Below, piece by piece: positions 17,161-32,294 of a stretch of 64,000 bases of DNA. The stretch is from Candidatus Versatilivorator sp. Its GTDB lineage: Bacteria > Acidobacteriota > Terriglobia > Versatilivoradales > Versatilivoraceae. Location: contig OZ242296.1 in the NCBI GenBank assembly GCA_965207735.1, positions 796,257-860,256 on the forward strand, given 5' to 3'. Position 1 is the stretch's first letter, and the number at the start of each line of letters is the position of its first letter. The notes beneath the pieces were generated by a model. It searched no databases, had not been told where the DNA came from, and worked only from the letters and a program-made list of their open reading frames with translations. Position numbers and translations under genes: made by a program.

Positions 17161-18647
17161 GAGCCTTTTGCAAAATTCGCAGATAGCGGGAATTTTCACG
17201 TGGGGAAAGATCAAGGAGGGCAGGTGGAAGGAGGGGCAAGACCACTGTCTGTTGTATCATGAAGGTGTCTGAACCACATGATGAACGGAGGTGGAACTTG
17301 CCCCTTAGGGAAACCCTATCACGACACTGGTTCCGGTTTCAACGAGAGCTGTTTCCCCTGCTGGAGGAAGTTTTGGGGCCTCTGGGAGAGCGTTACCAGC
17401 GGCTGGTGCAGGTATTGGAGTTGGTGCGGGTGGAGGAGTTGCTGCCTTACAGTCGGGGCTGGCGTGGCCGGCCGCTGGAGGATCGGGCAGTGCTGGCGCG
17501 AGCCTATCTGGCGAAGTCGATGCTGGAGGTGGCGACCACGCGGGGATTGGTGGAGCGGCTGAGGAGTGAGGGGAGGCTGCGGCGGCTGTGCGGCTGGGAG
17601 AGGGCGTGGGAGGTACCGAGCGAGTCGACCTTCTCGCGGGCCTTTGCGGAATTCGCTGAGAGCGACCTGCCGGGGCGTTTGCACGAGGCATTGCTGGAGG
17701 AGACGCTGAAGGGCCACTTGGCGGGGCATGTGTCGAGGGACTCGACGGCGATTGCGGGACGGGAAAAGCCAGCGGCCAAGGCTGCGCCGGAGGCCAAGCG
17801 GAAACGCCGGCGGGGCCGGCCGCCGAAGGGCGAGCGACGGCCCAAGCGGTTGAGCCGGCTGGAGCGGCAGGGGTCGATGACGCTGGAGGAAATGTTGAAG
17901 GAGTTGCCCAAGGCCTGCGACATCGGCGTCAAGCGCAACGCCAAGGGGCATCAGGAGAGCTGGACCGGCTACAAGCTACACCTCGACGCCATTGACGGCG
18001 GGATTCCGGTCAGTTGTCTGCTGACCTCGGCCTCGGTGCATGACTCTCAGGCAGCCATTCCGCTGGCGACGCTGACGGCAAGGCGGGTCGAGAGTCTCTA
18101 CGACTTGATGGACAGCGCCTACGATGCGCCGGAGATCCGGGCCTTCAGTGAGAAGCTGGGGCATGTGCCGATTATTGACGTCAACCCCCGCCGAAGAGCT
18201 ACCTTGAAAGCCGAGCGGAAGCGGGAGGCACTGGCCCGGCGCTGTATCGGCCAAGTGACTCCCGAGGCGCGGCGCTACCGGGAACGCTCGACGGTGGAGC
18301 GGGTCAACGGACGGCTCAAGGAGGAGTTTGGCGGGAGGCAGGTGAGGGTTCGCGGCCCCGACAAGGTGAGGTGCCACCTGATGTTCGGCATTCTGGCCCT
18401 GACGGTGGATCAGTTGATGCGCCTGACGCTCTGAAGACCGGGTTGCCACCCCCAACCGCACAGCAGGTTCGCCCGCCTCAAGGCCGGGAGAGGGTAAGCT
18501 GTGCCTGCGTCCGGCGACCGCTGGCCATCCGGCCATCAGATTCGGGCTTTTTCCTTCAAAAGGGTCTTTGCAGCTGGGTAGTCACCGCCGGAACATCACT
18601 GTTGCCAGCCCAATGTCATGCCCGATTCCGAATTTTGCAAAAGGCTC
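17161..18647 (+). mobile_element. IS element (IS4/IS5-type DDE transposase), 1487 bp, with 18-bp perfect terminal inverted repeats and 4-bp TSD
   Basis: IRL 'gagccttttgcaaaattc' at 17161-17178 and IRR 'gaattttgcaaaaggctc' at 18630-18647 are exact reverse complements. Flanking direct repeat TTGT at 17157-17160 and 18648-18651. Confidence 0.85.
17259..18434 (+). CDS. IS4/IS5-family DDE transposase
   Basis: 391 aa. 'SRDSTAI', 'YKLHLDA', 'DSAYDA' and 'YRERSTVERVNGRLKEEFG' are typical of DDE_Tnp_1 transposases. Confidence 0.85.
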   Translation: MKVSEPHDERRWNLPLRETLSRHWFRFQRELFPLLEEVLGPLGERYQRLVQVLELVRVEELLPYSRGWRGRPLEDRAVLARAYLAKSMLEVATTRGLVERLRSEGRLRRLCGWERAWEVPSESTFSRAFAEFAESDLPGRLHEALLEETLKGHLAGHVSRDSTAIAGREKPAAKAAPEAKRKRRRGRPPKGERRPKRLSRLERQGSMTLEEMLKELPKACDIGVKRNAKGHQESWTGYKLHLDAIDGGIPVSCLLTSASVHDSQAAIPLATLTARRVESLYDLMDSAYDAPEIRAFSEKLGHVPIIDVNPRRRATLKAERKREALARRCIGQVTPEARRYRERSTVERVNGRLKEEFGGRQVRVRGPDKVRCHLMFGILALTVDQLMRLTL

Positions 18648-18653
18648 TTGTGT

Positions 18654-19023
18654 GAGCCTTTTGCAAAATTCCGTAGGCGACGGTTTTGGGGGTCGGGAGA
18701 GGGAACAGGGAATGCGAGGGACAGGTCGGCTCTGTGTCTGAATGGCCACAAAAGGCACAAAAGCCGGAATCGGCAGGTCTCAAATCTCATGGAGGCATCC
18801 GGGTTCAGAGAACACGGCTCTCCGTGGAACGGCCACAAAAGGCACAAAAACGGGATTGGGCAAGACTGGAGCCCTGTTTTGTGCTTTTTGTGGTTGAGCC
18901 GTTTCCCATTCGCCGGGCAGCGGGACCTTTCCCGGGAGAAGCCAGTGGAGAGGTCAGTCACGGGACAGGCCGATCCTCTATTGTTTCATGCAAATGCCCC
19001 ATTCCGCATTTTGCAAAGGCCTC
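18654..19023. mobile_element. Non-autonomous (MITE-like) derivative of the adjacent IS, ~370 bp
   Basis: Starts with an exact copy of the IRL ('gagccttttgcaaaattc', 18654-18671). Ends with a near-copy of the IRR plus subterminal sequence ('ccccattccgcattttgcaaaggcctc', ending at 19023). Flanked by GTGT at 18650-18653 and 19024-19027. No transposase inside. Confidence 0.65.
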
Positions 19024-19266
19024 GTGTGTTATCTTTTTTGTGCTCTGTGCGGGCGCAAGAAGCGAACCGCCAAGGCCCTGACCGCCACAACGGCAAGAAG
19101 AGCGGGCTCTTTGGTGATGGCGATACGGGAGGTGCAGCATGAATGTGGCCGCCTCGGAAACGTTCATATCAACCATTGTGGGCCGCATCGTGAGAGGCTT
19201 CCAGTCTTCGCGGGTCGTCCTATTTGGATCCCTTGCACGGGGCGTGGCAACCGAACAGAGGAATCC

Positions 19267-19710
19267 ATGGCCAACCAGGTGCAAATCCGAATAGACCAGA
19301 CGAGCCCGGCGGCCTCCACCACCCAGGTCCGAGGCCATCGGATTTCAGTGGACCGTCCTTTGGAAAAGGGGGGCGAGGACCGGGGACCCATGGGGGGCGA
19401 GCTGATCCTGGTCGGTCTGGGGGGATGCTTTACCAGCAACCTTCTGGCAGCCATCCGAGCCCGTCAGGCGCCGGTGAGCCGGGTATCCACGACAGTCACC
19501 GCCACGCTGGCTGAGAGCCCTTCCCGCTTTGCCGCTATTGATCTGGCCGTATCCGCCGACTGCAGCGATGCCGCGCTTCTCCAAAAGCTGGTCAGCATCG
19601 CCGAACGGGCCTGTATTGCGGCCAATACCCTGCGGGGCGGTGTGAGTCTGAAGGTTCGTGTCGCCGCAATGGAGCCAGCCGAAGAGGTGTCCTGCCCTAA
19701 GAACGCCTAA
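19267..19710 (+). CDS. OsmC/Ohr family peroxiredoxin-like protein
   Basis: 147 aa from the internal ATG at 19267. 'GGELILVGLGGCFTSNL' and 'AERACIAANTL' carry the two conserved Cys of the OsmC family. The upstream part of the track ORF (18988-19266) overlaps the MITE. Confidence 0.75.
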   Translation: MANQVQIRIDQTSPAASTTQVRGHRISVDRPLEKGGEDRGPMGGELILVGLGGCFTSNLLAAIRARQAPVSRVSTTVTATLAESPSRFAAIDLAVSADCSDAALLQKLVSIAERACIAANTLRGGVSLKVRVAAMEPAEEVSCPKNA

Positions 19711-19929: not shown

Positions 19930-21153
19930 ATGCCGGTGCTGTCGGAAGGGATGTTTCATCCACCCATGGCCGTTTATCTGGATTGCGCCGCCACCGCCCC
20001 GGTCGATCCCCGGGTGCAACGGGAGGTCATGACCTATCTGGGCGTTGAATTCGGCAATGCCGGCAGTCGGCACCACGGGTTCGGTTCCAGAGCTCGTAGC
20101 GCCGTGGAGAGGGCGCGTGTCCAAGTCGCGGCGGTGGTGGGCGCCACCCGGGGCGAAATTATCTTCACCAGCGGCGCTACCGAAAGCAACAACCTGGCCC
20201 TGCTGGGTTTGGCCGAGCACGGGGCCGGGACCGACAGGTTTCACCTTGTCAGCACCAGGATTGAGCACAAGTCCGTATTGGAACCCCTGCGGGCCCTTTC
20301 CGGCCGCGGTTTTGAAGTCACCCTGGTGGCTCCGGAGCCCGGCGGCTGGGTGCGTCCAGGGGCTATCCGGGACGCACTCCGAGAAAATACCCTGCTGGTC
20401 TCGGTCATGCAGGTCAACAACGAGACCGGCGTCATTCAGCCCATCCTGGAAATCGCCCGGCTGCTCGAGAACCATCCGGCTTACCTGCACGTGGATGCCG
20501 CCCAAGGCTTCGGGAAAGAGATCGCATCGCTACGCAACCGTCGCATCGACTTGATCAGCATCAGCGGTCATAAGGTCTACGCCCCCAAGGGCATCGGCGC
20601 CCTGGTCACCCGCCGGCGGAACGGACAGCGGCCTCCTCTCACCCCTTTAATGCATGGGGGAGGCCAGGAACTGGGGTTACGTCCCGGGACATTGCCGGTT
20701 CCGCTCATCGCCGGACTTGGCAAGGCCTCCGAACTGGCTTTGGCGGAGCACCAGGAACGCAACACGGTCTGTCGAAGGTTCAAGGAAATTCTCCTGCGGG
20801 AATTGCGGATGCTGAAGCCTGTCTTCAACGGGGATCTCGACCGCACGGTCCCTCAGATTGTCAACTTTTCCTTGCCGGGAATCAGCTCGGAGGAAGCCAT
20901 CGAGGCCGTGAGCCAGGTAGCCGCCATCTCCAACGGATCGGCCTGTACTTCGACCTCCGATAGCTGCAGCCACGTGCTGAGCGCTCAGAAGCTGGACGAG
21001 GCCCGCATGGAGGGGGCGCTTCGCCTTTCCTGGTGCCACCTGAGCCGTCAGCCCGACTGGAACGCCTTCATCCAGGCAGTCGAGGGGATTGGAGAACCGG
21101 CTCTCCCCGAAAGCTCAACCGCGGTGGGGATTGGCCAGGCCGGCGCCGCCTGA
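19930..21153 (+). CDS. Cysteine desulfurase (NifS/IscS-like, class V aminotransferase)
   Basis: 407 aa. 'FTSGATESNN', PLP-Lys 'SISGHKVYAPKGIGAL', catalytic Cys loop 'SNGSACTS'. A start at 19966 is also possible. Confidence 0.85.
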   Translation: MPVLSEGMFHPPMAVYLDCAATAPVDPRVQREVMTYLGVEFGNAGSRHHGFGSRARSAVERARVQVAAVVGATRGEIIFTSGATESNNLALLGLAEHGAGTDRFHLVSTRIEHKSVLEPLRALSGRGFEVTLVAPEPGGWVRPGAIRDALRENTLLVSVMQVNNETGVIQPILEIARLLENHPAYLHVDAAQGFGKEIASLRNRRIDLISISGHKVYAPKGIGALVTRRRNGQRPPLTPLMHGGGQELGLRPGTLPVPLIAGLGKASELALAEHQERNTVCRRFKEILLRELRMLKPVFNGDLDRTVPQIVNFSLPGISSEEAIEAVSQVAAISNGSACTSTSDSCSHVLSAQKLDEARMEGALRLSWCHLSRQPDWNAFIQAVEGIGEPALPESSTAVGIGQAGAA

Positions 21154-21173
21154 AAGCGGACGACACCATCCGA

Positions 21174-21650
21174 ATGGCACAAGACCGGCAGCAGCACATT
21201 CGGTACAAGCGATCCCGGTTTTCAACACGGCTGCCGCTGGACCGCCGCTATACGGCCTCGCACTTCTGGACTGTCGAGCAGCAAACCGGCCTTTGGCGGG
21301 TGGGAATGACCAAATTCGCCACACGGATGCTCGGTGATCTTGTAGAATTCGAATTCGATGCCAAGCCCGGCCAGCAGGTCAGTGTCGGACAGACCATCGG
21401 CTGGATCGAAGCCTTCAAGGCCCTGACCGACCTCTATTGCGTGGTCGACGGAGTATTCAGGAGTGTGAACCCCCTGATCGAAGAGGATATCAGTCTGGTC
21501 GACTCCGATCCCTACGGAAAGGGGTGGCTCTACAGCGCCAGCGGTACTCCTGAGTCCAAGAGCGTGGACGTGCACGGATACGTGGAGATTCTGGATCTCA
21601 CCATCGACAAGATGAAAGAGCAGTCGGGAAACAGGGATAGCGATGGATAA
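21174..21650 (+). CDS. Glycine-cleavage H-protein-like lipoyl/biotinyl-type carrier protein
   Basis: 158 aa from the ATG at 21174. 'YTASHFW...VGMTKFATRMLGDLVEFEF', 'IGWIEAFKALTDLY' (matches the ESVKAASD lipoyl-Lys region) and 'DPYGKGWL'. Confidence 0.75.
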   Translation: MAQDRQQHIRYKRSRFSTRLPLDRRYTASHFWTVEQQTGLWRVGMTKFATRMLGDLVEFEFDAKPGQQVSVGQTIGWIEAFKALTDLYCVVDGVFRSVNPLIEEDISLVDSDPYGKGWLYSASGTPESKSVDVHGYVEILDLTIDKMKEQSGNRDSDG

Positions 21651-22782
21651 GGCCCGCTACATCATGATCGGTGGGTTTCTGGGGGCCGGCAAGACGACAG
21701 CGGTGCTGCGACTGGCCAAGCTCTTGGAAGGCCGCGGGTCGCAAGTGGGACTGATCACCAACGACCAGAGCCACGGGTTGGTCGATACCGCCCTGCTCGG
21801 CTCCAGCGGGTTTCCCGTGGAGGAAATCACCGGCGGTTGCTTCTGCTGCAAGTTCGATTCCCTGGTGAGCGCCTCCGAACGGCTTTCCCGAGAGCGGCAG
21901 CCCGATGTCTTCCTGGCCGAGCCGGTGGGAAGCTGCACCGATTTGAAAGCCACCGTGGATTATCCCCTGCGCCGCATGTACGGGGAGAACTACTGGATTG
22001 CTCCCTTGAGCGTGATGGTGGATCCGGTTCGCGCCCTGCGCATTCTGGAGCTGGAGCCCGGGAGGTCTTTCTCACCCAAGGTGGTTTACGTCTACCGCAA
22101 GCAATTGGAGGAAGCCGACATCATCGTCATCAACAAGATCGATCTGCTCAGCCCGCAACGCCTGGAGCGGCTTCGCGGGGCCCTGCAGGAGTCCTTTTCC
22201 CCGCACCTTGTGTTGTCCGTTTCCGCTCGCCAGGACAAAGGCCTGGAGGAATGGTTCGAACAGATCACCCAGCCCCGGGCCTGCACACGGGGTGATCTGG
22301 CCGTGGACTACGACACCTACGCCGAGGGAGAGGCGCTTCTCGGCTGGCTAAACTGCAGCTTGCGGGTCGGGGCTGCGGCTCCCTTTGACGGTAACCTTTT
22401 TCTGCGGGACGCCATGGCAGCCATCCAGCGACGGATACGATCCCGGGAAATCGCCCACTTGAAGATGACCTTGACCCCTGACGAACAGGGCCAGGATATC
22501 GGGGTGGCCAATCTCACCGGTAGCGATGTCGCTCCTGACCAGTCCCATGTGTTGCAGGAACCTCTGAGGGCCGGGGAACTCATCGTCAATCTGAGGGCGG
22601 AGGCCGACCCGGACGCCTTGCGGACCCAGGTTCAGGAAGCCCTCGCGGCCCTCCGCCGGGATGGGGGCCTGGAATTCGAGATCGAGCATCTGGAATCGTT
22701 CCGTCCGGCCCGGCCCACCCCCACCCACCGGCTGCAGGCGTCGGAGACCGGGGTCGCGGCCTCACAGTCCGTTTCGGCTTGA
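21643..22782 (+). CDS. G3E-family P-loop GTPase (CobW/HypB/UreG-like) with CxCC motif and extra C-terminal domain
   Basis: 379 aa. Walker A 'GGFLGAGKTT', 'ITNDQ', 'GGCFCCK' (GCxCC), 'VINKIDL' (NKxD). The start overlaps the GcvH-like stop by 8 nt. Confidence 0.75.
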   Translation: MDKARYIMIGGFLGAGKTTAVLRLAKLLEGRGSQVGLITNDQSHGLVDTALLGSSGFPVEEITGGCFCCKFDSLVSASERLSRERQPDVFLAEPVGSCTDLKATVDYPLRRMYGENYWIAPLSVMVDPVRALRILELEPGRSFSPKVVYVYRKQLEEADIIVINKIDLLSPQRLERLRGALQESFSPHLVLSVSARQDKGLEEWFEQITQPRACTRGDLAVDYDTYAEGEALLGWLNCSLRVGAAAPFDGNLFLRDAMAAIQRRIRSREIAHLKMTLTPDEQGQDIGVANLTGSDVAPDQSHVLQEPLRAGELIVNLRAEADPDALRTQVQEALAALRRDGGLEFEIEHLESFRPARPTPTHRLQASETGVAASQSVSA

Positions 22783-22822
22783 ATATGGCGACAACCACCA
22801 CGTCAGGATACCGGGCCACCCA

Positions 22823-23191
22823 ATGCCGGGAGCGATGATGGCGCCAGCAGCAAAAATCCTCTATTGTCGTTGCGCCTACGCCAAGGTAATCGCTCCGGAA
22901 GTCAAGGACGAGGTCCTTCAAAGGCTCACGCAATCCGGGGTGCCCTTTGAGGCCGTGCCCGATTTGTGCGAGATGTCTGCCCGGCGCGATCCGGCGCTCA
23001 AACGCTTGGCGGCGGAGGATGGAACCAAGATTGCAGCCTGCTATCCTCGAGCCGTAAGGTGGCTTTTTTCAGCAGCCCAGTCCCCTCTGCCTAAAGACAC
23101 GGTTGATATTGTGAACATGCGCGTTGACAGTGCCGAAACCGTCGCCCAGGGTCTCCTTCAAGAGCATTCGAAAGGAGAAGATTCATCGTGA
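22823..23191 (+). CDS. Small Cys-containing protein of unknown function (~120 aa)
   Basis: In operon frame. 'KILYCRCAYAKVIAPEVKDEVLQRL...VPDLCEM...IAACYPRAV'. The start is ambiguous (ATG at 22823, 22835 or 22838). The stop overlaps the next gene's GTG start. Confidence 0.5.
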   Translation: MPGAMMAPAAKILYCRCAYAKVIAPEVKDEVLQRLTQSGVPFEAVPDLCEMSARRDPALKRLAAEDGTKIAACYPRAVRWLFSAAQSPLPKDTVDIVNMRVDSAETVAQGLLQEHSKGEDSS

Positions 23192-24081
23192 TCGCCCCCA
23201 AGCTGCCTCTCCAGATCGGCCTCTACCAGAACGGCGGCCACCACCTGCTCGGCGAGGACCGGCAGTACGACCTGACCCGCAGCCTTCTGGACAAGGGCTA
23301 TGCGGTTTCGGTTATCCGTTCGGACAGTCAAATTGGACAAATCCGGGAAGGGGCCTGGCTCTTTCTGGGGTGCTTCGGCAAGGAAGAAGCGTTTCCGTCC
23401 GTGGGAAACGGGAACGGAGCCAAGCTCTACTTCCGGGACATCGATGGTCTGGAAACCTCGCAGATACTGGAGGCCGTGGAGCAGGTGCGCGGTGAAACCG
23501 AGCTGCCCGATCCGGGCGGCTGGAAACCCTGGTTTCCGGTGATCGATTACAACCGCTGCACCAACTGCATGCAATGCCTGAGCTTCTGTCTGTTTGACGT
23601 CTACGGTGTACACGAGGACAAGATCCAGGTGCAGAACGAGAGCAATTGCAAGACGGACTGCCCCGCCTGCTCCCGAGTCTGCCCCGAGGTGGCCATTCTC
23701 TTTCCCAAGTACAAGAGCGGTCCCATCAACGGAGACGTGGTGCGGCAGGAGGACATTCAGCGTGAGGCCATGAAGGTGGACATCTCGGCCCTGCTGGGCG
23801 GGGATCTATACGGGTCCCTGCGGCAGCGCCAGACGGAAGCTCGCCAGCGTTTCTCCACCGAGCGGGACGAGTCTCGAGCCCTGCTGGAGCGCAAGAAGTG
23901 CCTGCGCAAGCTCAAGAAGGATTTTGACATCCCGGACGAGGTTCTGATGAGCCTGCCTTCGGCCGGCGACATCCAGGAGCGGGCCGAACGGGCCAAGGCA
24001 AAGCTGGCTGCCCGCCAGGAGCGCTCCCAGACCGTCAGGGACACCCGGCCGGCGCCCACCGAAGACGACTGGGGAATCTAG
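23188..24081 (+). CDS. 4Fe-4S dicluster ferredoxin-domain protein with unknown N-domain and long charged C-terminal tail
   Basis: 297 aa. GTG start with AAAGGAG upstream. 'CTNCMQCLSFCLFDV' and 'CKTDCPACSRVCPEVAI' are two CxxCxxCxxxC(P)-type clusters. The C-terminal ~110 aa is Arg/Lys/Glu-rich. Confidence 0.8.
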   Translation: MIAPKLPLQIGLYQNGGHHLLGEDRQYDLTRSLLDKGYAVSVIRSDSQIGQIREGAWLFLGCFGKEEAFPSVGNGNGAKLYFRDIDGLETSQILEAVEQVRGETELPDPGGWKPWFPVIDYNRCTNCMQCLSFCLFDVYGVHEDKIQVQNESNCKTDCPACSRVCPEVAILFPKYKSGPINGDVVRQEDIQREAMKVDISALLGGDLYGSLRQRQTEARQRFSTERDESRALLERKKCLRKLKKDFDIPDEVLMSLPSAGDIQERAERAKAKLAARQERSQTVRDTRPAPTEDDWGI

Positions 24082-24084
24082 CCG

Positions 24085-25290
24085 ATGCTCACAACTTTGC
24101 TCTCCTTTGGCTACCGCGTGGTTCGAACCACCGATGCCCGTCTGCTGTGGAAGATCGGCTACAACTTCGGGTACAAGGGCATCCGTTCCGTTCAGCGATT
24201 CAAGGCCCGGCTCAAGCAGGGACAGACCTTTCCCCCGTTTCTCTATATCTCCATCACCAATAGCTGCAACCTGCGCTGCCAGGGATGCTGGGTGGACGTC
24301 GACAAGCCCCAGTCCCTGATCAGCTTCGAGGACATGAACCGCTTGATCGGGAATGCCAAGCAGCATGGGAACAGCTTTTTCGGGATCCTGGGGGGAGAGC
24401 CGTTCCTCCATCCCGACCTCATCGCCATCCTGAAGGCTCACCCCGACTGCTACTTTCAGATCTTCACCAACGGGCACGCCATCACCGACAAGGTGGCCGC
24501 CGAGCTCCGCAAGGCCGGCAACGCCACACCCCTGGTCAGCGTGGAAGGGACCGAAGCCGTCAGCGACGTGCGGCGCGGCCGCAAAGGAGTCCTGAATCGG
24601 ACCCTGGCCGGCATCCAGGCCAGTCTTCGGCACCGTCTGATCACCGGGGTCGCCACCAGTGTCTGCCAGAGCAACTTCGACGACCTGGTCCGGGAGTCCT
24701 GGATCGACAACCTCATCGATATGGGAGTGCACTACACCTGGTTCCACACCTATCGCGCCGTAGGGCCCGTAGCCAACCCCCAGCTGGCCCTGACCGCCGA
24801 GCAGGGGCTCCGACTGCGCCGGTTCGTGCTGGATATGCGCAACCGCAAGCCCATCGGGATCGTGGATGCCTACTACGACGACCGGGGGGAGGCGCTGTGC
24901 CCGGCGGCCACCGGGATCAGCCACCACATCAGTCCCTTTGGCGACGTGGAGCCCTGCCCCGTGGTCCAGTTCGCCAACGAGTCCATCCACGACAACCAGG
25001 GGGACCTGTTCAAGACCATGACCGAGTCGCCCTTGCTGGAGGACTTTCGGCGCACGGCCGCCGGGGCTACCCGGGGCTGCATCGTGCTGGAACGACCCGA
25101 TCTCCTCAAGCAGGTGGTGGAGCGCAACAGCGCTCAAGACACCACCCTGCGGCACACAGCCATGCCGGAACTGGAGCAGATGCAATCCAGGCCCAGCCAG
25201 TACAATCCGGGCAACGAGCTGCCGGAGGAGAACTGGGCCTACCGTTTCGCCAAGAAGCACTGGTTCTTCGGATTTGGAGCCTACACCTGA
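24085..25290 (+). CDS. Radical SAM enzyme (no B12-binding domain evident)
   Basis: 401 aa. 'ISITNSCNLRCQGCW' (CxxxCxxC), 'GILGGEPFLH' (GGEP). C-terminal Cys pairs 'ALCPAATG...VEPCPV' and 'TRGCIV'. Confidence 0.85.
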   Translation: MLTTLLSFGYRVVRTTDARLLWKIGYNFGYKGIRSVQRFKARLKQGQTFPPFLYISITNSCNLRCQGCWVDVDKPQSLISFEDMNRLIGNAKQHGNSFFGILGGEPFLHPDLIAILKAHPDCYFQIFTNGHAITDKVAAELRKAGNATPLVSVEGTEAVSDVRRGRKGVLNRTLAGIQASLRHRLITGVATSVCQSNFDDLVRESWIDNLIDMGVHYTWFHTYRAVGPVANPQLALTAEQGLRLRRFVLDMRNRKPIGIVDAYYDDRGEALCPAATGISHHISPFGDVEPCPVVQFANESIHDNQGDLFKTMTESPLLEDFRRTAAGATRGCIVLERPDLLKQVVERNSAQDTTLRHTAMPELEQMQSRPSQYNPGNELPEENWAYRFAKKHWFFGFGAYT

Positions 25291-25331
25291 AGAGGAGTCC
25301 CGCCGCGGGAATCCAGGAGGGAGTCGCCAGC

Positions 25332-27122
25332 ATGATCCGGAAGGTAGTGGACGATCTCAAGCAGGCGCCGGATTCCGGAAACGGAGTTCTGCTGACACTT
25401 CCGGCCAAGGTCCCCAAGCAAGCCTATCGCCCGGCTCAGTCCAATATTCCCGACGACAAGCGGGTCCGGGTCTTTCTGAAGAAGGTCGTGGCCGATCATG
25501 TCCGCACGGTGGGCGCGGTGCCGCCGCTGACCATGGATGAGCTGCGGGACCATGCCACCGCCGTATTGACGAAGGCCGGGCTGGAAAGCAAGTACCGGGA
25601 CTACGCCGCCATTCTGGTCGGCAACGAGTCCTGGAGGGATACCCTGGCGCAGATTCCCTTCAACCGCCGTCTCCTGCTGCTCCCCAAGTGCCTGCGGGTG
25701 GAAGAACGCTGTCCGGCCCCCTTCGACGAGTTCGGGCTGCTCTGCAAGGAGTGCGGGCTGTGCTCTATCCAGGACCTGTCGGTGGAGGCCGAGAGGCTGG
25801 GCTACGCCGTCCTGGTTGCGGAGGGTTCGGCTATCGTGCGGCAGATGATCGAGACGGGCAAGATCGAAGCGGTGGTGGGAGTCAGTTGCATCAACGTGCT
25901 GGAGAAGTGCTTCCCCCATATGGAAGCGGCAGCCGTGCCGGGAATGGCCATTCCGCTGCTTCAGGACGATTGCGTGAACACCACCGTGGACCTGGACTGG
26001 GTCTGGGACCTGATTCACCTGACGGCCGACGACAAGACCTATCGCCTCGACCTGGACGGGCTCAAGAGCGAGGTTCAGAGTTGGTTCCGCAGGGAGGCGT
26101 TGGCGGAGCTGATGGGCGCGCCCTCGGAGGAGACGGCTGTCATCGCCCAGGACTGGCTGGCCAAGGCCGGAAAGCGCTGGAGACCCTATCTGGCCACCTG
26201 CACCACCATGGCGCTGCAGAGCCACCGGCAGGAGGCCTCCCCCCAAGCCTCGGCAGACCTGAAGAAGCTGGCGGTGGCCATTGAATGCTTCCACAAGGCC
26301 TCCCTGATCCACGACGACATCGAGGACGGCGACCTGGAGCGCTACGGCAGCCAAGCGCTGCACGCCGAGGTTGGAATGCCGGTAGCTCTCAACGTGGGAG
26401 ACTATCTGCTGGGAGAGGGCTACCGCTTGATCTCCGAGCTTTCCATCGATCCGGCCGTTCGGGTGGAGATGCTGCGGCTGGCCTCGGAAGGCCACCTGAC
26501 CTTGAGTCGCGGTCAGGGGTTGGAACTCTGCTGGGCCAGGAGTCCCAAGCCCCTCTCCTCCCTGCAGGTGCTGGATATCTTCCGCAAGAAGACGGCGCCG
26601 GCCTTCGAAGTGGCGCTGCGTCTGGGAGCCTGCCTGGCAGGCGCCGACGAAGAAACCCACTCCGTCCTGCGCCAGTACAGCCAATCGCTGGGCATCGCCT
26701 ATCAGATCCGCGACGATCTGGAGGACTACAACGGAAGCGGCGATTCCAACGACCTGGAGGCCCTGCGGCCCTCCCTGATTCTGGCCATTGCGCACAAGCG
26801 CGCCCTGCAGGGCCGCGAAAAGGACCTCATTTCCTCCCTCTTTTGCTTGGAGCGTGGCTATTCCCAGGTCTCGGCTGAAGTGCAGCGCATCCTGGTGGAA
26901 CGCGGGGTCACCGAGAAGGCCGAAGAACTTCTGGAGGCCTACAAGGAAGAGGCGGTTCGTTCCTTGCGCTTTCTCTCCAACCCGACGCTGAAGGGATTGC
27001 TGCGCCGGGTGGTGGGCAAGATCTTCGGCGAGCAGTTCATCGAGGGCTACTGCAGTGAGTTTGAGGCTCGAAATGCTGCAGGTCGCGCGCCTGGCCCCCA
27101 ACCTGTTGCGCGAAGCCACTGA
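25332..27122 (+). CDS. DUF116-like Cys-rich domain fused to a trans-polyprenyl diphosphate synthase domain
   Basis: 596 aa from the ATG at 25332 (GGAGGG RBS). N-half: 'RRLLLLPKCLRVEERCPAPFDEFGLLCKECGLCSI...VVGVSCINVLEKC...IPLLQDDCVNTTVD' (DUF116 pattern as I recall it). C-half: 'GKRWRP', first Asp-rich 'LIHDDIEDGD', second 'QIRDDLEDY'. The upstream 349 codons of track ORF 24285-27122 are off-frame overlap with the rSAM gene. Confidence 0.8.
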   Translation: MIRKVVDDLKQAPDSGNGVLLTLPAKVPKQAYRPAQSNIPDDKRVRVFLKKVVADHVRTVGAVPPLTMDELRDHATAVLTKAGLESKYRDYAAILVGNESWRDTLAQIPFNRRLLLLPKCLRVEERCPAPFDEFGLLCKECGLCSIQDLSVEAERLGYAVLVAEGSAIVRQMIETGKIEAVVGVSCINVLEKCFPHMEAAAVPGMAIPLLQDDCVNTTVDLDWVWDLIHLTADDKTYRLDLDGLKSEVQSWFRREALAELMGAPSEETAVIAQDWLAKAGKRWRPYLATCTTMALQSHRQEASPQASADLKKLAVAIECFHKASLIHDDIEDGDLERYGSQALHAEVGMPVALNVGDYLLGEGYRLISELSIDPAVRVEMLRLASEGHLTLSRGQGLELCWARSPKPLSSLQVLDIFRKKTAPAFEVALRLGACLAGADEETHSVLRQYSQSLGIAYQIRDDLEDYNGSGDSNDLEALRPSLILAIAHKRALQGREKDLISSLFCLERGYSQVSAEVQRILVERGVTEKAEELLEAYKEEAVRSLRFLSNPTLKGLLRRVVGKIFGEQFIEGYCSEFEARNAAGRAPGPQPVARSH

Positions 27123-27939
27123 GCGGGTCGACGACTTCCTGCGGAACCAGATCAATCCGGACGGAGGATTCCGGGATCGTGTCGGCCAAAGCGATCTCTA
27201 CTACACCGTCTTCGGCCTTGAAGGTCTGATCGCCCTGCGACAAGAGCCGCCTTACTCGCGGGTGCGCCCCTTCCTGGAAGGATTCGGGGACGGCGATGGG
27301 TTGGACCTGGTCCATCTGGCCTGCCTGGCCCGCTGCTGGGCAGCTCTTCCTTCCGGCAGCCTCTCTCCCGAAACCTGCCGGTGCCTGGTCGAAAGGCTGG
27401 AATCCTTTCGAGCCGGGGACGGAGGATACGCACCCACCCCTGGTGCCCCCGCGGGCGCCGTTTACCACGGCTTTTTGGTCCTGGGAGCTTACCAGGACCT
27501 GGGGGTTCCCATCCCAGACCCTACGGGGTTGGCAACTTCGGTCCAGGCGCTTCAATTGGACAGCGGGGGCTTTTCCGGCCGCCCCGGCCTACCGGCCCCT
27601 TCCACCCCCAATACCGCGGCAGCCCTGACCCTTCTCCGGCAATTCGGCTCCCCTGCCCTCCCCGGAGGCTCCGACTGGCTCTTGAGCCAGGCCTGCCCCG
27701 ACGGCGGCTTTCGTGCAGCGGAAGACACGCCCATTCCCGACCTGCTCTCGACAGCTACCGCCCTGCATGCCCTGGCCGGGCAACAGGTTTCCTTCCAACA
27801 CCTCAAGGAACCAACGCTGGATTTTCTAGACACCCTCTGGACCAGCCGGGGAGCCTTCTACGGAAACTGGACCGACGAGGTGGCCGACTGCGAATACACC
27901 TACTACGCCTTGCTCGCCCTGGGCCACCTGAGCCTGTGA
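27055..27939 (+). CDS. Prenyltransferase/squalene-oxidase-repeat (alpha/alpha-barrel) protein, single barrel
   Basis: About 290 aa. Four or five repeats of the type 'INPDGGFRD', 'AGDGGYAPTPG', 'LDSGGFSGRPG', 'CPDGGFRAAED'. Possible starts are GTG 27055, TTG 27061 or ATG 27073. Overlaps the end of the upstream gene. Confidence 0.75.
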   Translation: MSLRLEMLQVARLAPNLLREATERVDDFLRNQINPDGGFRDRVGQSDLYYTVFGLEGLIALRQEPPYSRVRPFLEGFGDGDGLDLVHLACLARCWAALPSGSLSPETCRCLVERLESFRAGDGGYAPTPGAPAGAVYHGFLVLGAYQDLGVPIPDPTGLATSVQALQLDSGGFSGRPGLPAPSTPNTAAALTLLRQFGSPALPGGSDWLLSQACPDGGFRAAEDTPIPDLLSTATALHALAGQQVSFQHLKEPTLDFLDTLWTSRGAFYGNWTDEVADCEYTYYALLALGHLSL

Positions 27940-28010
27940 GACTCGGTAGCCCCGGGAGCGCGGGCATCCCGCCCCCATCCTTATTCCTGCAAATAGTCTC
28001 CCGTCCAGGG

Positions 28011-28160
28011 TCACTCCCTCGCAAAGCGCACCAAACCCACCTTCACGGGGTTCTCTTCCATAAGGCGGAAGGTAAGAAATTGCATTGTTTCCGCTTCGTC
28101 GAAGTGCGGGAGGTAGCCACGATCGTGCCAATTCCTCTGCGGGCGGGACGCCCGCGCTCC
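28011..28160 (-). pseudogene. Remnant of a REP-associated tyrosine transposase (RayT/IS200-like), N-terminal fragment only
   Basis: 'RPQRNWHDRGYLPHFDEAETMQFLTFRL' matches the characteristic N-terminus 'RGYLPH(F/W)..(x)..(Q/Y)F(V/L)TFRL' of this family. The ORF stops after ~45 aa of homology. Confidence 0.45.
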
Positions 28161-28281
28161 CGGGTGGGCCTTGTTGACGGACACCATTGCTTGCACCGCT
28201 AAACCAGTCCGAGAAATGATTGCAGTGTAGCCAATGCCCATTGAAGATAAAATCTCAGGAAATCTCAGGTTTTGGGCTAAC

Positions 28282-30363
28282 CCATCTTTAACACGGCTTC
28301 CAAGTATACGTTTATTATCAACAGGTTACAAAAGGCTCAACGCGCAAGTGGCACTACAAACGCGTTGAAACCGGAGATTTTGGAGGAATCAGACGATCAT
28401 CTTGCGGATCCCTCCAGGAGAGGGATCGATGCCCAGGGCGTCGTAGATGGCCCTCTGATCGGGTTCGGCCCGTGTGGCCTTGCGGACGTGCAAGGTCCGC
28501 CCGTCCTGACGCCGGAAGGTGACCGTGACCCGCTGCTGTCCTTCCAGGATGCGCCGCAGCGTGGTCCAACTGGAGGCCTCGCCGCGCTGCTTGAGGCGTT
28601 TGCGGATGACCTGCACCAGTTGATAGGCGATGACCGTCAGAAACAGGTGACCTTCCGAGCGCACCGGCTTGTGATGATAGATGGGCCGCAGGCCCAGCTC
28701 GGACTTCAGGGAGCGAAACACCGCTTCCACGTCGGTCAGAGTCGTGTAGGTACGCCAGAGACTTTCCTCGTCCCAGTCAGTCTGGTTGCTGCGCAGGCAG
28801 TAGACCCCCGGATGGGTGGCCATCGAGCCCTGGCGGGGACGGTGCTTCCATCTCAGCGCTGTCGCCTTGCGGCCGCTCTCGTCGGTGAGGACCTCGATGC
28901 TGTAGTGTTGCCCCACCCCGCGGCTCTGTTCCTTCAGCCGCCCGATCCTCTCCCGGACCTTCTCGACGCCTTTGTGAGTCCGCGGCCGGGAAAGCCCCTC
29001 GGAGAGTCGGGTGAGCCCCTGCTCGAAGCGCCGGCTGAAGCGCTCCACGATGCCCTTCTCCTTCTCAGCCCGCTGCTGTGAGCGGCAGTAGAGACGCACT
29101 TCCTGCCCGTCGTCGGAGATCTCCTTGTGGAGCTGCAGCTCGGCCTTGGAAGCCGTCTCCACCGTCACGGCCGCCTCGGCATCGAACTGCCTCCGGCCCT
29201 GGCGGCTGGCCACCAGGTAGCGATACCCTTCCTCCCTCAACCACTGGATCCGGTCCTCGGTCGCCACCCCCCGATCCATCACCACCAAGGCTCCCCGGGG
29301 CGCCTCCAGCGCCTCCAGCATCCCCTCCAGGGTGCGGGGCTCATCCACCCTACCGGCAAAGACCTCCGAGCGGCGCACAAACCCCGCCCCGTCCAGCACC
29401 AACCCCAGCGTCAGCAGCCGACAGTCGCTGCGCTTGTCCTTCGAGTGGCCCCGCTCGGCCTTGGGCTGATGGCTGGCCGCCCCTTCGAAGAAGGTGTTGG
29501 TCAGATCGAACAGGGTGACGGTCGGCTCCAGATCGAACAACCCCATGGCCCGGGTGAAGAGGTGACGCTCGATGGCCTCCCGATGCTTCATCAGCGCGTC
29601 CGAGGCCCGATACATCTGCATCAGACTCAGGCTCTCGAAGTCAACCTCCAGCAACTCGCCCAAGCCGCTGCGCCGCCTGAGCCAGCCCCAGGTGGCCCTC
29701 TCCGAGCCCGGTCGGGCCAGACGGCCTACCATGGCCCCCAACGCCGCTGCCCGCATCGGTCCGTTCAGCCCTAACTCGGTCAGCAGATCCCCCAGCCCCA
29801 ACTGCTCCAGCGCCCAGCAACCGACCTGCTCCACCCCCACGCTGCGCGGACGTGTCAAGGCCACCGAATCCACCTCGACCGTCTGCAGGTCCTCTGAGGC
29901 GGCCTCCCCGCCAACGCCGGTCACGTCGGCTTCGCCCTCAAGCAAGCGCTGGGCCATGCGTTGGGCTTCCTCCTCCAACGGGGTGGAAGCCACCGGCAAG
30001 AGAGGCAACTGACCGGTGAGGATCTGATCGAGACGGCGGCACAACAAGGGCCAGTCCTCACGGGGGATCGAGAAGTGTCGACCGAGGTTGAGGAGGGTCT
30101 GCTGGCGGACCTTGCCACTGACGCGATGGGAGCGGACGAGGCGGTGGGTGAAGTAGGTCTGTCCGGAATGGAGGCTGCGGGTCTGGGTGCGTCGGATGAA
30201 CATGGGAGGGACGCTACCAGAGGAGAGAGAGGGGGTCAAGCCCATCCCATACGATTATGGCACTACATTCACCTCCTCAACCAAGAATCAACAACTTACG
30301 GGTGGTTTTAGGCTAAAATGGGGGTAAAATACCTCAAATCGGCCGTTTCTTTGTTAAAGATGG
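28282..30363 (-). mobile_element. IS1634-family insertion sequence, 2082 bp, 12-bp TIRs, 6-bp TSD
   Basis: Ends 'ccatctttaaca' (28282-28293) and 'tgttaaagatgg' (30352-30363) are exact reverse complements. Direct repeat GCTAAC at 28276-28281 and 30364-30369. Confidence 0.85.
28389..30203 (-). CDS. IS1634-family (IS4 superfamily) transposase
   Basis: About 604 aa from 'MFIRRTQTRSLHSGQTYFTHRLVRS...' (typical IS1634 N-terminus). DDE-type core. The track ORF starts 14 codons further upstream. Confidence 0.85.
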   Translation of the reverse strand: MFIRRTQTRSLHSGQTYFTHRLVRSHRVSGKVRQQTLLNLGRHFSIPREDWPLLCRRLDQILTGQLPLLPVASTPLEEEAQRMAQRLLEGEADVTGVGGEAASEDLQTVEVDSVALTRPRSVGVEQVGCWALEQLGLGDLLTELGLNGPMRAAALGAMVGRLARPGSERATWGWLRRRSGLGELLEVDFESLSLMQMYRASDALMKHREAIERHLFTRAMGLFDLEPTVTLFDLTNTFFEGAASHQPKAERGHSKDKRSDCRLLTLGLVLDGAGFVRRSEVFAGRVDEPRTLEGMLEALEAPRGALVVMDRGVATEDRIQWLREEGYRYLVASRQGRRQFDAEAAVTVETASKAELQLHKEISDDGQEVRLYCRSQQRAEKEKGIVERFSRRFEQGLTRLSEGLSRPRTHKGVEKVRERIGRLKEQSRGVGQHYSIEVLTDESGRKATALRWKHRPRQGSMATHPGVYCLRSNQTDWDEESLWRTYTTLTDVEAVFRSLKSELGLRPIYHHKPVRSEGHLFLTVIAYQLVQVIRKRLKQRGEASSWTTLRRILEGQQRVTVTFRRQDGRTLHVRKATRAEPDQRAIYDALGIDPSPGGIRKMIV

Positions 30364-30377
30364 GCTAACCATATCCG

Positions 30378-32294
30378 ATGAATTCAAATACTGTGCTCGA
30401 TCGCGAAAAACTCAGGCACACCTTGGCTCGCGCCACCCGCAAGCTGCTGGATTCCCGGGTCCCGGCAGGCCACTGGGAAGGTGAGTTGTCGAGCAGCGCC
30501 CTCTCCACCGCCACCGCGGTGCTGGCTTTGGCCCTGCTGCTGCGGGAGGGAGAAGGGCGTCTGGATCCGAGTCTGGCGGCCACCTGTCGGAATTTGACGG
30601 CCAAGGGAAGGGACTGGCTGGTTGAGAACCAAAATCCGGACGGTGGTTTCGGCGATACAGTCGGGAGCCCCGGCAACCTGAGCACCACGGCGCTGGGCTG
30701 GGGGGCCTTGACAGCCGCGGACGGTGGTTGTGACCAGACTCTGAACGCTACTCGGGCCTGGCTGACGGCCAGGACCGGAGGTCTGGACGCCGGGGCGCTG
30801 GCCACGGCCATTACCGCCCGCTATGGGGATGATCGCACCTTCTCGGCACCCATCCTGACCGCCTGCGCCCTGGCCGGAGCCTTCGGACCGGATAAAGGCG
30901 TCTGGAGCCGCGTCCCTCAGCTCCCTTTCGAGCTGGCCGTCTGTCCCCCGCAGTGGTTCAAGTGGCTGCGCCTGCCGGTGGTCAGCTATGCCCTGCCGGC
31001 CCTGATCGCCATCGGCCAGGTCCGCCACTGCTTCCATGCCACTCGAAATCCCTTGCTGCGCCTGATCCGCTCCCTGGCACGACGAAGGAGCCTGGAGATC
31101 CTGCAGACCATTCAGCCGGCAAGCGGCGGTTACCTGGAAGCGGTTCCTCTCACCAGCTTCGTGATCATGAGCCTGGCGGCCAGCGGGCAGGCATGCCACC
31201 CGGTCGTCTTGCGGGGTGTGGATTTTTTGGCGGCCACCGCTCGGGCCGACGGATCCTGGCCCATCGATACCAACCTGGCAACCTGGGTGACCACCCAGTC
31301 CCTCGCTTCCCTGGCGGCCGGAGGGGATCTCGAATCCCACCTGGATGCGGAAGAGCGCCGAGACCTCCGGCGCTGGCTGCTGGATCAGCAATATCACAGC
31401 CTGCACCCCTATACCCATGCCGAGCCTGGCGGCTGGGCCTGGACCGATCTGCCGGGCGGGGTTCCGGATGCCGACGATACCGCCGGCGCCCTGCTGGCCT
31501 TGAGCTACCTGGGACCCGGCGATGTCGAGTCGATTCAAGCCGCTTCCGCCGGCGTGGAGTGGCTGCTCGATCTGCAGAACTCTGACGGAGGCATTCCAAC
31601 CTTCTGTCGTGGCTGGGGCCGGCTGCCCTTCGACCGCAGCAGCCCCGATCTCACGGCCCATGCGCTGCTGGCCTGGTCAAGCTGGCAACAGGCTGTTCCG
31701 CTCCGGCTTCGATCCCGCCTGCAGTCGGCCGGGAGGCGCGGTGTGAACTATCTGTCCGTTTCCCAACGAGAGGACGGCGCCTGGGTGCCGCTCTGGTTCG
31801 GTAACCAGGCGGCCCGAGGCGAAGAGAACCCGACCTATGGCACGGCCCGGGTAGTGCTGGCTCTCAACCGTCTGAGCGACGACGGAGACTTTCCGGTTGA
31901 AGGAATGAGGAGTCGAGGCATCGACTGGTTGCTGGCTGCGCAGAACGCCGACGGTGGCTGGGGCGGATCTGCAGGAGTGGCATCCACCATCGAAGAGACG
32001 GCTCTGGCGGTACAGACCCTGGCGGATGCCCCGGATGTGGCTTCGCATTCCCTGGACCTGACGAGGAGCCCCGTGGAGGTCGCCATCGCCAAGGGGGTAT
32101 CCTTGCTGGTCGCTGCCACCCGAGGGGGGCGGGATTTCAAGCCGTCGCCCATCGGACTCTACTTTTCCAAGCTGTGGTACTTCGAGCGCCAGTATCCGGT
32201 TATCTTCTCCGTGGCCGCCCTGGGTCGGGCAGCCTCCACGGATTATCGATGCACCCTTTCCAATACCTCGGCCGGCGGAGGCGGAAACAGGTAG
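30378..32294 (+). CDS. shc: Squalene-hopene cyclase
   Basis: 638 aa. Catalytic 'GVPDADDTAGALLAL' (DxDD). Multiple QW-type repeats: 'QNPDGGFG', 'QNSDGGIP', 'QREDGAWVPLWF', 'QNADGGWGG'. Confidence 0.9.
   Translation: MNSNTVLDREKLRHTLARATRKLLDSRVPAGHWEGELSSSALSTATAVLALALLLREGEGRLDPSLAATCRNLTAKGRDWLVENQNPDGGFGDTVGSPGNLSTTALGWGALTAADGGCDQTLNATRAWLTARTGGLDAGALATAITARYGDDRTFSAPILTACALAGAFGPDKGVWSRVPQLPFELAVCPPQWFKWLRLPVVSYALPALIAIGQVRHCFHATRNPLLRLIRSLARRRSLEILQTIQPASGGYLEAVPLTSFVIMSLAASGQACHPVVLRGVDFLAATARADGSWPIDTNLATWVTTQSLASLAAGGDLESHLDAEERRDLRRWLLDQQYHSLHPYTHAEPGGWAWTDLPGGVPDADDTAGALLALSYLGPGDVESIQAASAGVEWLLDLQNSDGGIPTFCRGWGRLPFDRSSPDLTAHALLAWSSWQQAVPLRLRSRLQSAGRRGVNYLSVSQREDGAWVPLWFGNQAARGEENPTYGTARVVLALNRLSDDGDFPVEGMRSRGIDWLLAAQNADGGWGGSAGVASTIEETALAVQTLADAPDVASHSLDLTRSPVEVAIAKGVSLLVAATRGGRDFKPSPIGLYFSKLWYFERQYPVIFSVAALGRAASTDYRCTLSNTSAGGGGNR

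Follow-up and report, generated by a model that had tools for sequence, protein, structure and literature searches.

Isoprenyl diphosphate synthases (IDS) are among the best-understood enzymes of lipid and terpenoid metabolism, and we know of none that works with a fused domain of the iron-sulfur (Fe-S) type. The gene discussed here encodes a protein in which a synthase domain is joined to a cysteine-rich DUF116 domain. It lies at 25332 to 27122 on the plus strand of a 64,000-nucleotide (nt) stretch of the genome of Candidatus Versatilivorator sp. (GenBank assembly GCA_965207735.1, contig OZ242296.1, positions 796,257 to 860,256), which we refer to as the window; all coordinates given are positions within the window. 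The fusion gene sits in a conserved operon of nine genes, and its synthase half has a substrate site that, by alignment, is remodelled throughout the family. We put the chances at a little better than even that the protein is one soluble two-domain enzyme and that the operon, with the fusion at its core, encodes a pathway linked to redox chemistry whose end product is a modified cyclic polyprenoid, this being a joint judgment on the whole reading.

The fusion itself is already on record: one sentence of Makarova et al. (2015; PMC5898192) mentions that some bacteria have DUF116 joined to polyprenyl synthetase (Psta_0175). The authors predicted that DUF116 has a flavodoxin-like fold and proposed that it takes part in electron transfer. 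According to the same paper, the domain has at least six conserved cysteines, including a CxxCxxC motif, and the archaeal proteins have two N-terminal transmembrane (TM) helices and are encoded next to sulfite/nitrite reductase or ArsA-type genes. A published figure legend describes a cluster in Bipolaricaulota with a standalone DUF116 gene accompanied by genes for IspH, squalene-hopene cyclase (SHC), HpnH, and a polyprenyl synthetase. Apart from the sentence of 2015 and this legend, literature searches on the fusion and its operon, and on the names Psta_0175, PF01976, and COG1852, turned up nothing. In the literature searched, DUF116 has no assigned function, as had been said in a preliminary description of this DNA made from the sequence without database searches; no description of the operon was found there, and the operon and the family-wide remodelling of the isopentenyl diphosphate (IPP) site appear to be undescribed in it.

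Other proteins that join an IDS to a product-handling or localising partner include the fungal prenyltransferase-terpene synthase chimeras and the IDS cargo of family 2 encapsulins. Their partners are terpene synthase or targeting domains, whereas that of the fusion is a Cys-rich putative metal domain. The encapsulin cargo IDS is the best NCBIfam match of the fusion, at 113 bits, far under its cut-off of 450, and none of the NCBIfam chain-length equivalogs, with cut-offs of 275 to 600 bits, was reached.

The fusion gene is a single intact open reading frame (ORF) of 596 codons, as the preliminary description had it, and can be read directly from an ATG at 25332 to a TGA at 27120 to 27122. A ribosome-binding site, GGAGG, lies 11 nt upstream of the ATG (25316 to 25320, plus strand), and the radical S-adenosylmethionine (SAM) gene that precedes it ends with a stop codon at 25288 to 25290. 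Mechanical ORF calling extends the frame to 24285 merely through the absence of in-frame stops; the extension overlaps the radical SAM gene in a different frame. Pfam places DUF116 (PF01976) at residues 77 to 227, with 124 bits against a cut-off of 25 (E = 3.6e-36; model positions 5 to 154 of 155), and polyprenyl synthetase (PF00348) at residues 272 to 490, with 145 bits against a cut-off of 27 (E = 3.1e-42); by these scores, both matches are far beyond chance. The motifs quoted in the preliminary description (LLLLPKCL...C...CKECGLC...VVGVSC...IPLLQDDCVNTTVD, GKRWRP, LIHDDIEDGD, and QIRDDLEDY) are all present, and its proposal of a covalent PF01976-PF00348 fusion with an N-terminal half of the DUF116 type agrees with the Pfam result.

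The preliminary description had also raised the possibility of a frameshift or of two split genes. Such an artefact, whether from a frameshift, a mis-assembly, or read-through of two genes, is exceedingly improbable. Some close database matches are indeed DUF116-only proteins of 230 to 320 residues, but these are fragments at contig ends or on short contigs, or they belong to long-read assemblies full of frameshifts, with all genes of the cluster broken. Short reads of two public runs (X1 and X2) yielded, in an independent assembly, a 9400-nt contig that reproduces window positions 24900 to 28167, and with them the single ORF, with no mismatches and no gaps, and in a related strain (X3) the fusion ORF differs by substitutions only. 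Full-length copies, all two-domain and each a single ORF, were recovered from 77 genomes of several phyla, and 89 of 147 family representatives are at least 470 residues long. The short-read contigs and the 77 full-length copies together refute an artefactual origin.

Mapping the taxonomic spread of the fusion, a step proposed in the preliminary description, was done by scanning one genome per species. Relatives turned up in at least 589 species genomes, which represent five or more phyla; this number is a lower bound, and 80 loci were examined in detail, all of which share the two-domain arrangement. The best 120 matches among 5.8 billion proteins have the same architecture, with 69 to 93% identity, and are named merely “polyprenyl synthetase family protein” or “GGPP synthase” (geranylgeranyl diphosphate synthase). 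Conservation is very high, with identities of 52 to 95% across phyla. Among the matches listed, the closest, at 89 to 95%, are metagenome-assembled genomes (MAGs) of Terriglobia and Ca. Versatilivorator (Acidobacteriota). Further carriers belong to Vicinamibacterales, Thermoanaerobaculia, and Holophagae; those in the Planctomycetota to Phycisphaerae, Tepidisphaerales, Pirellulales, and Fimbriiglobus, together with isolate ZRK34; and those in the Verrucomicrobiota to Chthoniobacteraceae and Verrucomicrobiales. Hydrogenedentota and Gemmatimonadales also carry it.

An exhaustive comparison of the DUF116 domain alone with 1.84 billion cluster representatives returned 883 matches at E ≤ 1e-3, and 237 clusters (50% identity) match at E ≤ 1e-30. 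Most of the 150 best matches are 470 to 660 residues long, i.e., fused; the exhaustive search, in which standalone DUF116 relatives were also sought, listed mainly full fusions, and what we say of the general context of standalone DUF116 comes from the literature. A word-indexed search with the domain alone found only fragments of the fusion. The family is large and old, and within it the fusion is, to judge by these sequences, obligate.

Conservation was assessed in an alignment of 78 sequences from Acidobacteriota, Planctomycetota, Verrucomicrobiota, Hydrogenedentota, and Gemmatimonadales, in a smaller set of 56 sequences, and, for motif states across the family, in the 89 mutually diverse representatives of at least 470 residues. 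Three proteins of 650 to 664 residues (P0380, P0379, and P0307) represent a divergent DUF116-IDS subfamily that keeps the seven cysteines and the RYG motif described below; their second Asp-rich motif is NDxxD, a state found in 7 of the 89 representatives, and they are without the C-terminal G-Y-C tail.

The neighbourhood of the fusion was surveyed by tblastn of the window ORFs against the 80 related loci. Nine genes, the fusion included, are arranged alike, in order and in strand, in Acidobacteriota, Planctomycetota, Hydrogenedentota, Verrucomicrobiota, and Gemmatimonadales; each of the eight neighbours was found at 36 to 57 of the 80 loci. In the window the set spans 19930 to 32294, all on the plus strand. 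It begins with a class-V aminotransferase/cysteine desulfurase (gene 1, 19930 to 21153; 36 of 80 loci) that keeps the HK motif of the pyridoxal phosphate (PLP) lysine and the active-site motif SxxxAC. A GcvH-like protein with a conserved lipoyl-type lysine in E-x-F-K-A (gene 2, 21180 to 21650; 45 loci) and a CobW/COG0523-type metallochaperone GTPase with a GCFCC motif (gene 3, 21643 to 22782; 44 loci) follow. Gene 4 (22826 to 23191, start codon uncertain; 51 loci) encodes a protein of about 120 residues with four invariant cysteines (CxC...DLC...AAC) that matched no Pfam family, and gene 5 (23188 to 24081; 53 loci) a protein in which a 2x[4Fe-4S] ferredoxin domain is flanked by an N-terminal domain of unknown type and a C-terminal tail. 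The radical SAM enzyme (gene 6, 24085 to 25290), with CxxxCxxC and five further conserved cysteines, is the most persistent neighbour of the fusion, at 57 loci. Downstream of the fusion (gene 7, present at all 80 loci) come a 294-residue alpha/alpha toroid with Prenyltrans repeats (gene 8, 27055 to 27939; 56 loci) and a class II terpene cyclase resembling squalene-hopene cyclases, with the motif VPDxDDT (gene 9, 30378 to 32294; 52 loci).

The operon genes are tightly packed or overlap. The last 68 nt of the fusion (27055 to 27122) also encode the start of the toroid in another frame, an overlap that recurs in all of the phyla and suggests translational coupling of the two genes; over about its first 26 nt both frames are conserved (SEFEARNAA in the fusion, VSLRLEMLQ in the toroid). 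The residues expected to matter for function are kept in the orthologues: CxxxCxxC of the radical SAM enzyme, GCFCC of CobW, the lysine of GcvH, the cysteine and PLP lysine of the desulfurase, and PDxDDT of the cyclase. In one MAG of the Hydrogenedentota (L081), unrelated genes lie on both sides of the set, and the desulfurase is found at its 3' end. The preliminary description had taken the covalent link to a prenyl-chain synthase as its functional hint; the conserved operon is a stronger one than the fusion alone.

Hopanoid (hpn) loci resemble the operon in part. They too bring together a class II cyclase of the DxDD type, a lipid-type radical SAM enzyme, and Fe-S proteins, and the hpn-like cluster of Bipolaricaulota carries its standalone DUF116 gene. 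The GcvH, CobW, desulfurase, and toroid genes of the operon, by contrast, have no hpn counterpart. Pfam recognises the N- and C-terminal SQHop_cyclase domains in the cyclase, whose DADDTA aligns with DVDDTA (D374-x-D376-D377) of A. acidocaldarius SHC, and PDxDDT is kept in 46 orthologues; against the hopene cyclase equivalog TIGR01507, however, the protein scores 94 bits, the cut-off being 431. Gene 6 contains a radical SAM core by Pfam and falls below every NCBIfam cut-off, scoring 41.6 bits against 225 for HpnH (TIGR03470). Squalene synthase genes (HpnCDE or Sqs) are not present at the operon. On these three grounds we rejected a canonical hopanoid locus. A second candidate identity concerned the toroid, which matches Pfam Prenyltrans with 49 bits against a cut-off of 26.5 and, weakly, the RabGGTase beta subunit (E = 0.01). 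Its Asp and C-terminal His are conserved, but the Cys adjoining the Asp is variable, so that a classical Zn-dependent beta subunit of a protein prenyltransferase is not supported.

The synthase half of the fusion (residues 272 to 490; 26145 to 26801) has the all-alpha fold of trans-IDS enzymes. Most of it is modelled by AlphaFold2 (AF2) with pLDDT values of 85 to 98, and Foldseek aligns it with IDS structures at target-normalised TM-scores of 0.72 to 0.88 and E values down to 4e-13, the highest scores (0.84 to 0.88) being those of 4jyx, 6kd7, 1wy0, and 3wjk. With these canonical enzymes (the E. coli octaprenyl diphosphate synthase IspB, 3wjk; PATL_3739, 4jyx; the archaeal GGPP synthases 1wy0 and 6kd7) it shares GKRxRP, the DDxxD motifs, and the KT pair. 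The first Asp-rich motif, D328-D-I-E-D332, together with the R337-Y338-G339 that follows it, occupies 26313 to 26348, R337 and Y338 mapping to Arg112/Arg113 of human farnesyl diphosphate synthase (hFPPS), and the second, D461-D-L-E-D465, is preceded by Y457-Q458 (Y457-Q458-I-R-D461-D-L-E-D465; 26700 to 26726). Among the 78 sequences, the aspartates of both motifs (D328-D329-x-x-D332 and D461-D462-x-x-D465) are at least 97% conserved, and the first motif, R337, Y338, K420-T421, Y457, Q458, and the second motif are scored as invariant. In GKRWRP, G280 and R282 to P285 are invariant, and the conservation of K281 is 90% or more among the 56 sequences. The fusion differs from the canonical enzymes in having about 270 extra N-terminal residues with DUF116, and it ends in a C-terminal tail, peculiar to this operon-type subfamily, with an invariant G572-Y-C574 (27027 to 27119), the last 68 nt of the gene being those that overlap the toroid. 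C574 is present in all 78 sequences of the window's subfamily, in which C319, nine residues before the first Asp-rich motif, is also invariant; a G[YWF]C tail occurs in only 6 of the 89 diverse representatives.

The substrate contacts can be read against those of hFPPS (PMC4106277), in which Arg112, Lys200, and Lys257 contact the allylic diphosphate, Arg113 forms a salt bridge to the IPP diphosphate, and Phe239 contacts the IPP tail. On the allylic side, the fusion keeps residues equivalent to Arg112 and Lys200 as well as the two Asp-rich Mg2+ motifs; with these contacts intact, it is very probable that an allylic (poly)prenyl diphosphate is bound and ionised here. On the IPP side, the equivalents of Lys57 (K281), Arg60 (R284), and Gln96 (H321) are kept, but the canonical RRG has become R337-Y338-G339 (RY-x in about 72 of the 89 representatives, RRG in 1 of 89), and the FQ pair before the second motif is replaced by Y457-Q458, with Tyr for Phe, throughout the family. 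The second motif is followed by variable residues (YNGSG or FKGEA) with no conserved lysine, i.e., no equivalent of Lys257, and R479 takes the place of the lysine of the later GK-x-T. Taken together, RYG, YQ, and the absence of a Lys257 equivalent mean that the IPP sub-site is remodelled across the whole fusion family, as far as aligned residues can tell.

These results bear on the reading of the C-terminal half as an ordinary elongating trans-prenyl diphosphate synthase, making geranylgeranyl diphosphate (GGPP) or longer chains, with DUF116 in a regulatory or structural role, for example as a sensor of redox state or iron that controls the flux of isoprenoids. In essence, the preliminary description had read the C-terminal half in this way, as a trans-polyprenyl diphosphate synthase. 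That assignment holds as far as the Pfam family and the IDS fold are concerned; it is less secure in its chemistry, given an altered IPP sub-site and, as described below, a non-elongating enzyme as the nearest solved relative. We regard the elongating reading as a real but distinctly less probable alternative. It is favored by the conservation of GKRWRP, KT, and both Asp-rich motifs, by the three retained IPP-site equivalents, and by structural neighbours that are themselves elongating synthases. The operon has no other IDS, and the substrate of the cyclase must arise somewhere. The residues at positions -5 and -4 before the first DDxxD are small as well, Ala323 and Ser324 in the fusion and Ala-Ser in 82 of the 89 representatives; together with helix D they resemble those of medium- and long-chain synthases. 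The preliminary description had linked these small residues to products of C20 or longer. The residues are there and fit such lengths, yet they are also found in type II/III GGPP synthases and do not separate C20 from longer products. Against elongation stand the loss of the IPP-binding arginine and the other family-wide changes of the IPP sub-site, together with scores far under the cut-offs of the chain-length equivalogs. Furthermore, a purely regulatory DUF116 would leave unexplained both the seven invariant cysteines in a fusion kept across phyla and the presence of radical SAM and ferredoxin genes in the operon.

The best sequence relative of the synthase half among solved structures is Ord1 (E = 1e-22 in a search of PDB sequences). 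Ord1 (PDB 9v4g; PMC12510300) is an IDS-fold enzyme that farnesylates indole without chain elongation; the Tyr-Gln pair of its AYQIRDD motif shapes the acceptor site, with the Tyr opening it. The fusion has the same AYQIRDD, and like Ord1, XiaM, and ComQ it has GRP/LRP in place of GK-x-T. The C-terminal half could accordingly be a non-elongating prenyltransferase of the Ord1/XiaM/ComQ type that acts on a nucleophile other than IPP, in which case DUF116 would bind, activate, or generate the acceptor, possibly a sulfur species delivered by the desulfurase and the GcvH-like carrier, or a reductively generated intermediate. Apart from the match to Ord1, the remodelled IPP sub-site points this way, as do the conserved and, from its motifs, apparently active cysteine desulfurase and GcvH-like protein of the operon and the NDxxD subfamily, which is what altered chemistry would lead one to expect. 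We nevertheless think it unlikely. Ord1 has a pseudo second motif, DDxxA, and RR after the first, whereas the fusion keeps a full DDxxD second motif, RY after the first, and, unlike Ord1, the IPP-binding basic pair of GKRxR; Ord1 is also without a Cys-rich domain and belongs to an indolosesquiterpene pathway. The operon analysis names no candidate acceptor, and the desulfurase may serve Fe-S assembly only. We know of no precedent for S-prenylation by an IDS fold.

The DUF116 half (residues 77 to 227; 25560 to 26012) bears out the preliminary description of a Cys-rich domain. Seven cysteines (C120, C127, C138, C141, C144, C186, and C214) are invariant in the 78 sequences, which come from five or more phyla, against the six or more expected of DUF116. 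Five of them form the loop C120-x6-C127-x10-C138-x2-C141-x2-C144 (25689 to 25763), invariant in the 56-sequence set also, in which C138-x2-C141-x2-C144 is the CxxCxxC of DUF116. It is reasonable to see in the seven cysteines a putative metal site, compatible with the Fe-S or Zn module suggested earlier, and we infer that they would bind one or two Fe-S clusters, less likely Zn, and serve as a redox module. The full-length AF2 model (pLDDT 78) shows three N-terminal helices followed by a core of alternating beta-strands and helices, with C120 placed after strand 1, C186 after strand 3, and C214 after the last strands; AF2 gives pLDDT values of 45 to 70 for the core. The Cys loop (residues 121 to 143) has a pLDDT of <50, as is expected of a cofactor-dependent loop, and the overall pTM of 0.75 hints at a defined packing of the two domains in the model. 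The three N-terminal helices are amphipathic, and the Kyte-Doolittle maximum over 19 residues, 0.79 in the N-terminal region and 1.24 overall, is too low for a TM helix.

Compared with standalone DUF116 proteins (COG1852, arCOG02078; e.g., MMP0162), the fused domain has a near full-length Pfam match, the CxxCxxC motif, and a predicted alpha/beta core in common; the archaeal proteins have their two TM helices, whereas the fused form has three amphipathic helices and a synthase. The occurrence of archaeal DUF116 beside sulfite reductase or ArsA-type genes makes a general redox/metal module more likely than a polyprenyl-specific one. The preliminary suggestion that the domain acts on or with polyprenyl diphosphates is therefore upheld in the fusion itself, while the specificity that it implied is less likely.

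In the pathway that we favor, the IDS half would supply or transfer a prenyl intermediate that the toroid and the DxDD cyclase would bind and cyclise, and the radical SAM enzyme would modify the prenyl product. The electron carriers would be the ferredoxin, the 4-Cys protein, and DUF116, and the assembly of clusters or the donation of sulfur would fall to the desulfurase and CobW. The two-domain architecture, its conservation, the operon, and the motif states are observed; the metal binding, the flow of electrons, and the order of the steps are inferred from them.

A bolder version makes DUF116 a catalytic Fe-S domain that would go beyond relaying electrons and act directly on the prenyl diphosphate or the carbocation in the remodelled IDS active site, either by an IspH-like reduction or by forming a C-S bond with sulfur from the operon desulfurase and the GcvH-like carrier, so that the operon would yield cyclised, radical-SAM-modified, and possibly sulfur-bearing polyprenoids. 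We give this version, its sulfur source included, a low probability.

Several points weigh against the favored pathway. The case for metal binding by the fusion family consists of the conservation of its cysteines, and the DUF116 model is of low confidence: the domain modelled by itself has a pLDDT of 66.6, with the Cys loop at <50, and Foldseek gave it no match better than E = 0.066 and a TM-score of ≤0.26. The Rossmann-like, B12-binding, and NifEN-type hits that recur there are too weak to interpret from such a model. A sequence search of the PDB for solved DUF116 relatives matched the IDS half only, and in a profile search no hit improved on E = 0.06. The desulfurase, CobW, and GcvH-like proteins have no demonstrated link to terpenoids and could simply mature the Fe-S proteins of the operon. 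Many loci of the Verrucomicrobiota have the fusion by itself or accompanied just by the radical SAM gene; in L040, L043, L045, L049, L050, L053, L059, and L073, no other operon genes were found within 8 kb of it, so that the cyclase and toroid are not obligatory neighbours. Finally, the C-terminal Cys tail is missing from most of the diverse fusion subfamilies, NDxxD is the second motif in some, and a single mechanism may not account for all of them.

In the window, the operon is interrupted between the toroid and the cyclase by an insertion sequence (IS) element of 2080 bp (28283 to 30362, minus strand; DDE transposase 28389 to 30245). It has 11-bp terminal inverted repeats (CATCTTTAACA and TGTTAAAGATG) and an 8-bp target duplication, GGCTAACC, at 28275 to 28282 and 30363 to 30370, and the corresponding site is empty in a relative of 95% identity (L001). 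The insertion point is 7 nt 5' of the start codon of the cyclase, which is thus probably uncoupled from the operon in this strain. Two other relatives (L002 and L005) have gaps of 2.3 to 2.8 kb at this position. The spacer between toroid and cyclase also contains, at 27951 to 28164, a 27-nt inverted repeat (93% complementary) around 160 nt, which is kept in L001; its depth of short-read words is several hundred to 2600, compared with about 11 in the flanks, which suggests a multi-copy element resembling miniature inverted-repeat transposable elements or repetitive extragenic palindromes (MITE- or REP-like). Two more IS transposase genes (DDE_Tnp_1 with DUF772) lie at 17259 to 18434 and 42494 to 43816, both on the plus strand, making the window rich in IS elements, with at least three in 64 kb.

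Some other genes of the window may be mentioned. An OsmC-like gene (18988 to 19710, plus strand) lies just upstream of the operon, and at one other locus (L083) an OsmC gene (17285 to 17764) is within 8 kb of the cluster. A lipoyl synthase gene (LIAS_N with Radical_SAM; 2995 to 3927, plus strand) is found 17 kb upstream of the operon with its GcvH-like gene, a placement that may be coincidental. In a single ORF on the minus strand (15827 to 16837), a regulator domain of the FUR family is joined to a C-terminal domain of the rubrerythrin/ferritin-like type, an unusual combination.

The operon brings together prenyl chemistry, a class II cyclase, a radical SAM enzyme, ferredoxins, a metallochaperone, and sulfur mobilisation, and it offers a concrete set of genes for joint expression. 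Its product, once known, could give DUF116 a first function and could reveal a new redox-dependent step in isoprenoid biosynthesis. It could also identify a lipid of the Acidobacteriota, Planctomycetota, and Verrucomicrobiota that are abundant in soil, freshwater, and sediment, and such a lipid could matter for membrane biology and for the interpretation of orphan terpenoid biomarkers. If DUF116 proved to be catalytic, the operon would stand for a class of polyprenoid lipids, so far undescribed, that are cyclised, modified by a radical SAM enzyme, and possibly sulfur-bearing, in five phyla, the Gemmatimonadota among them.

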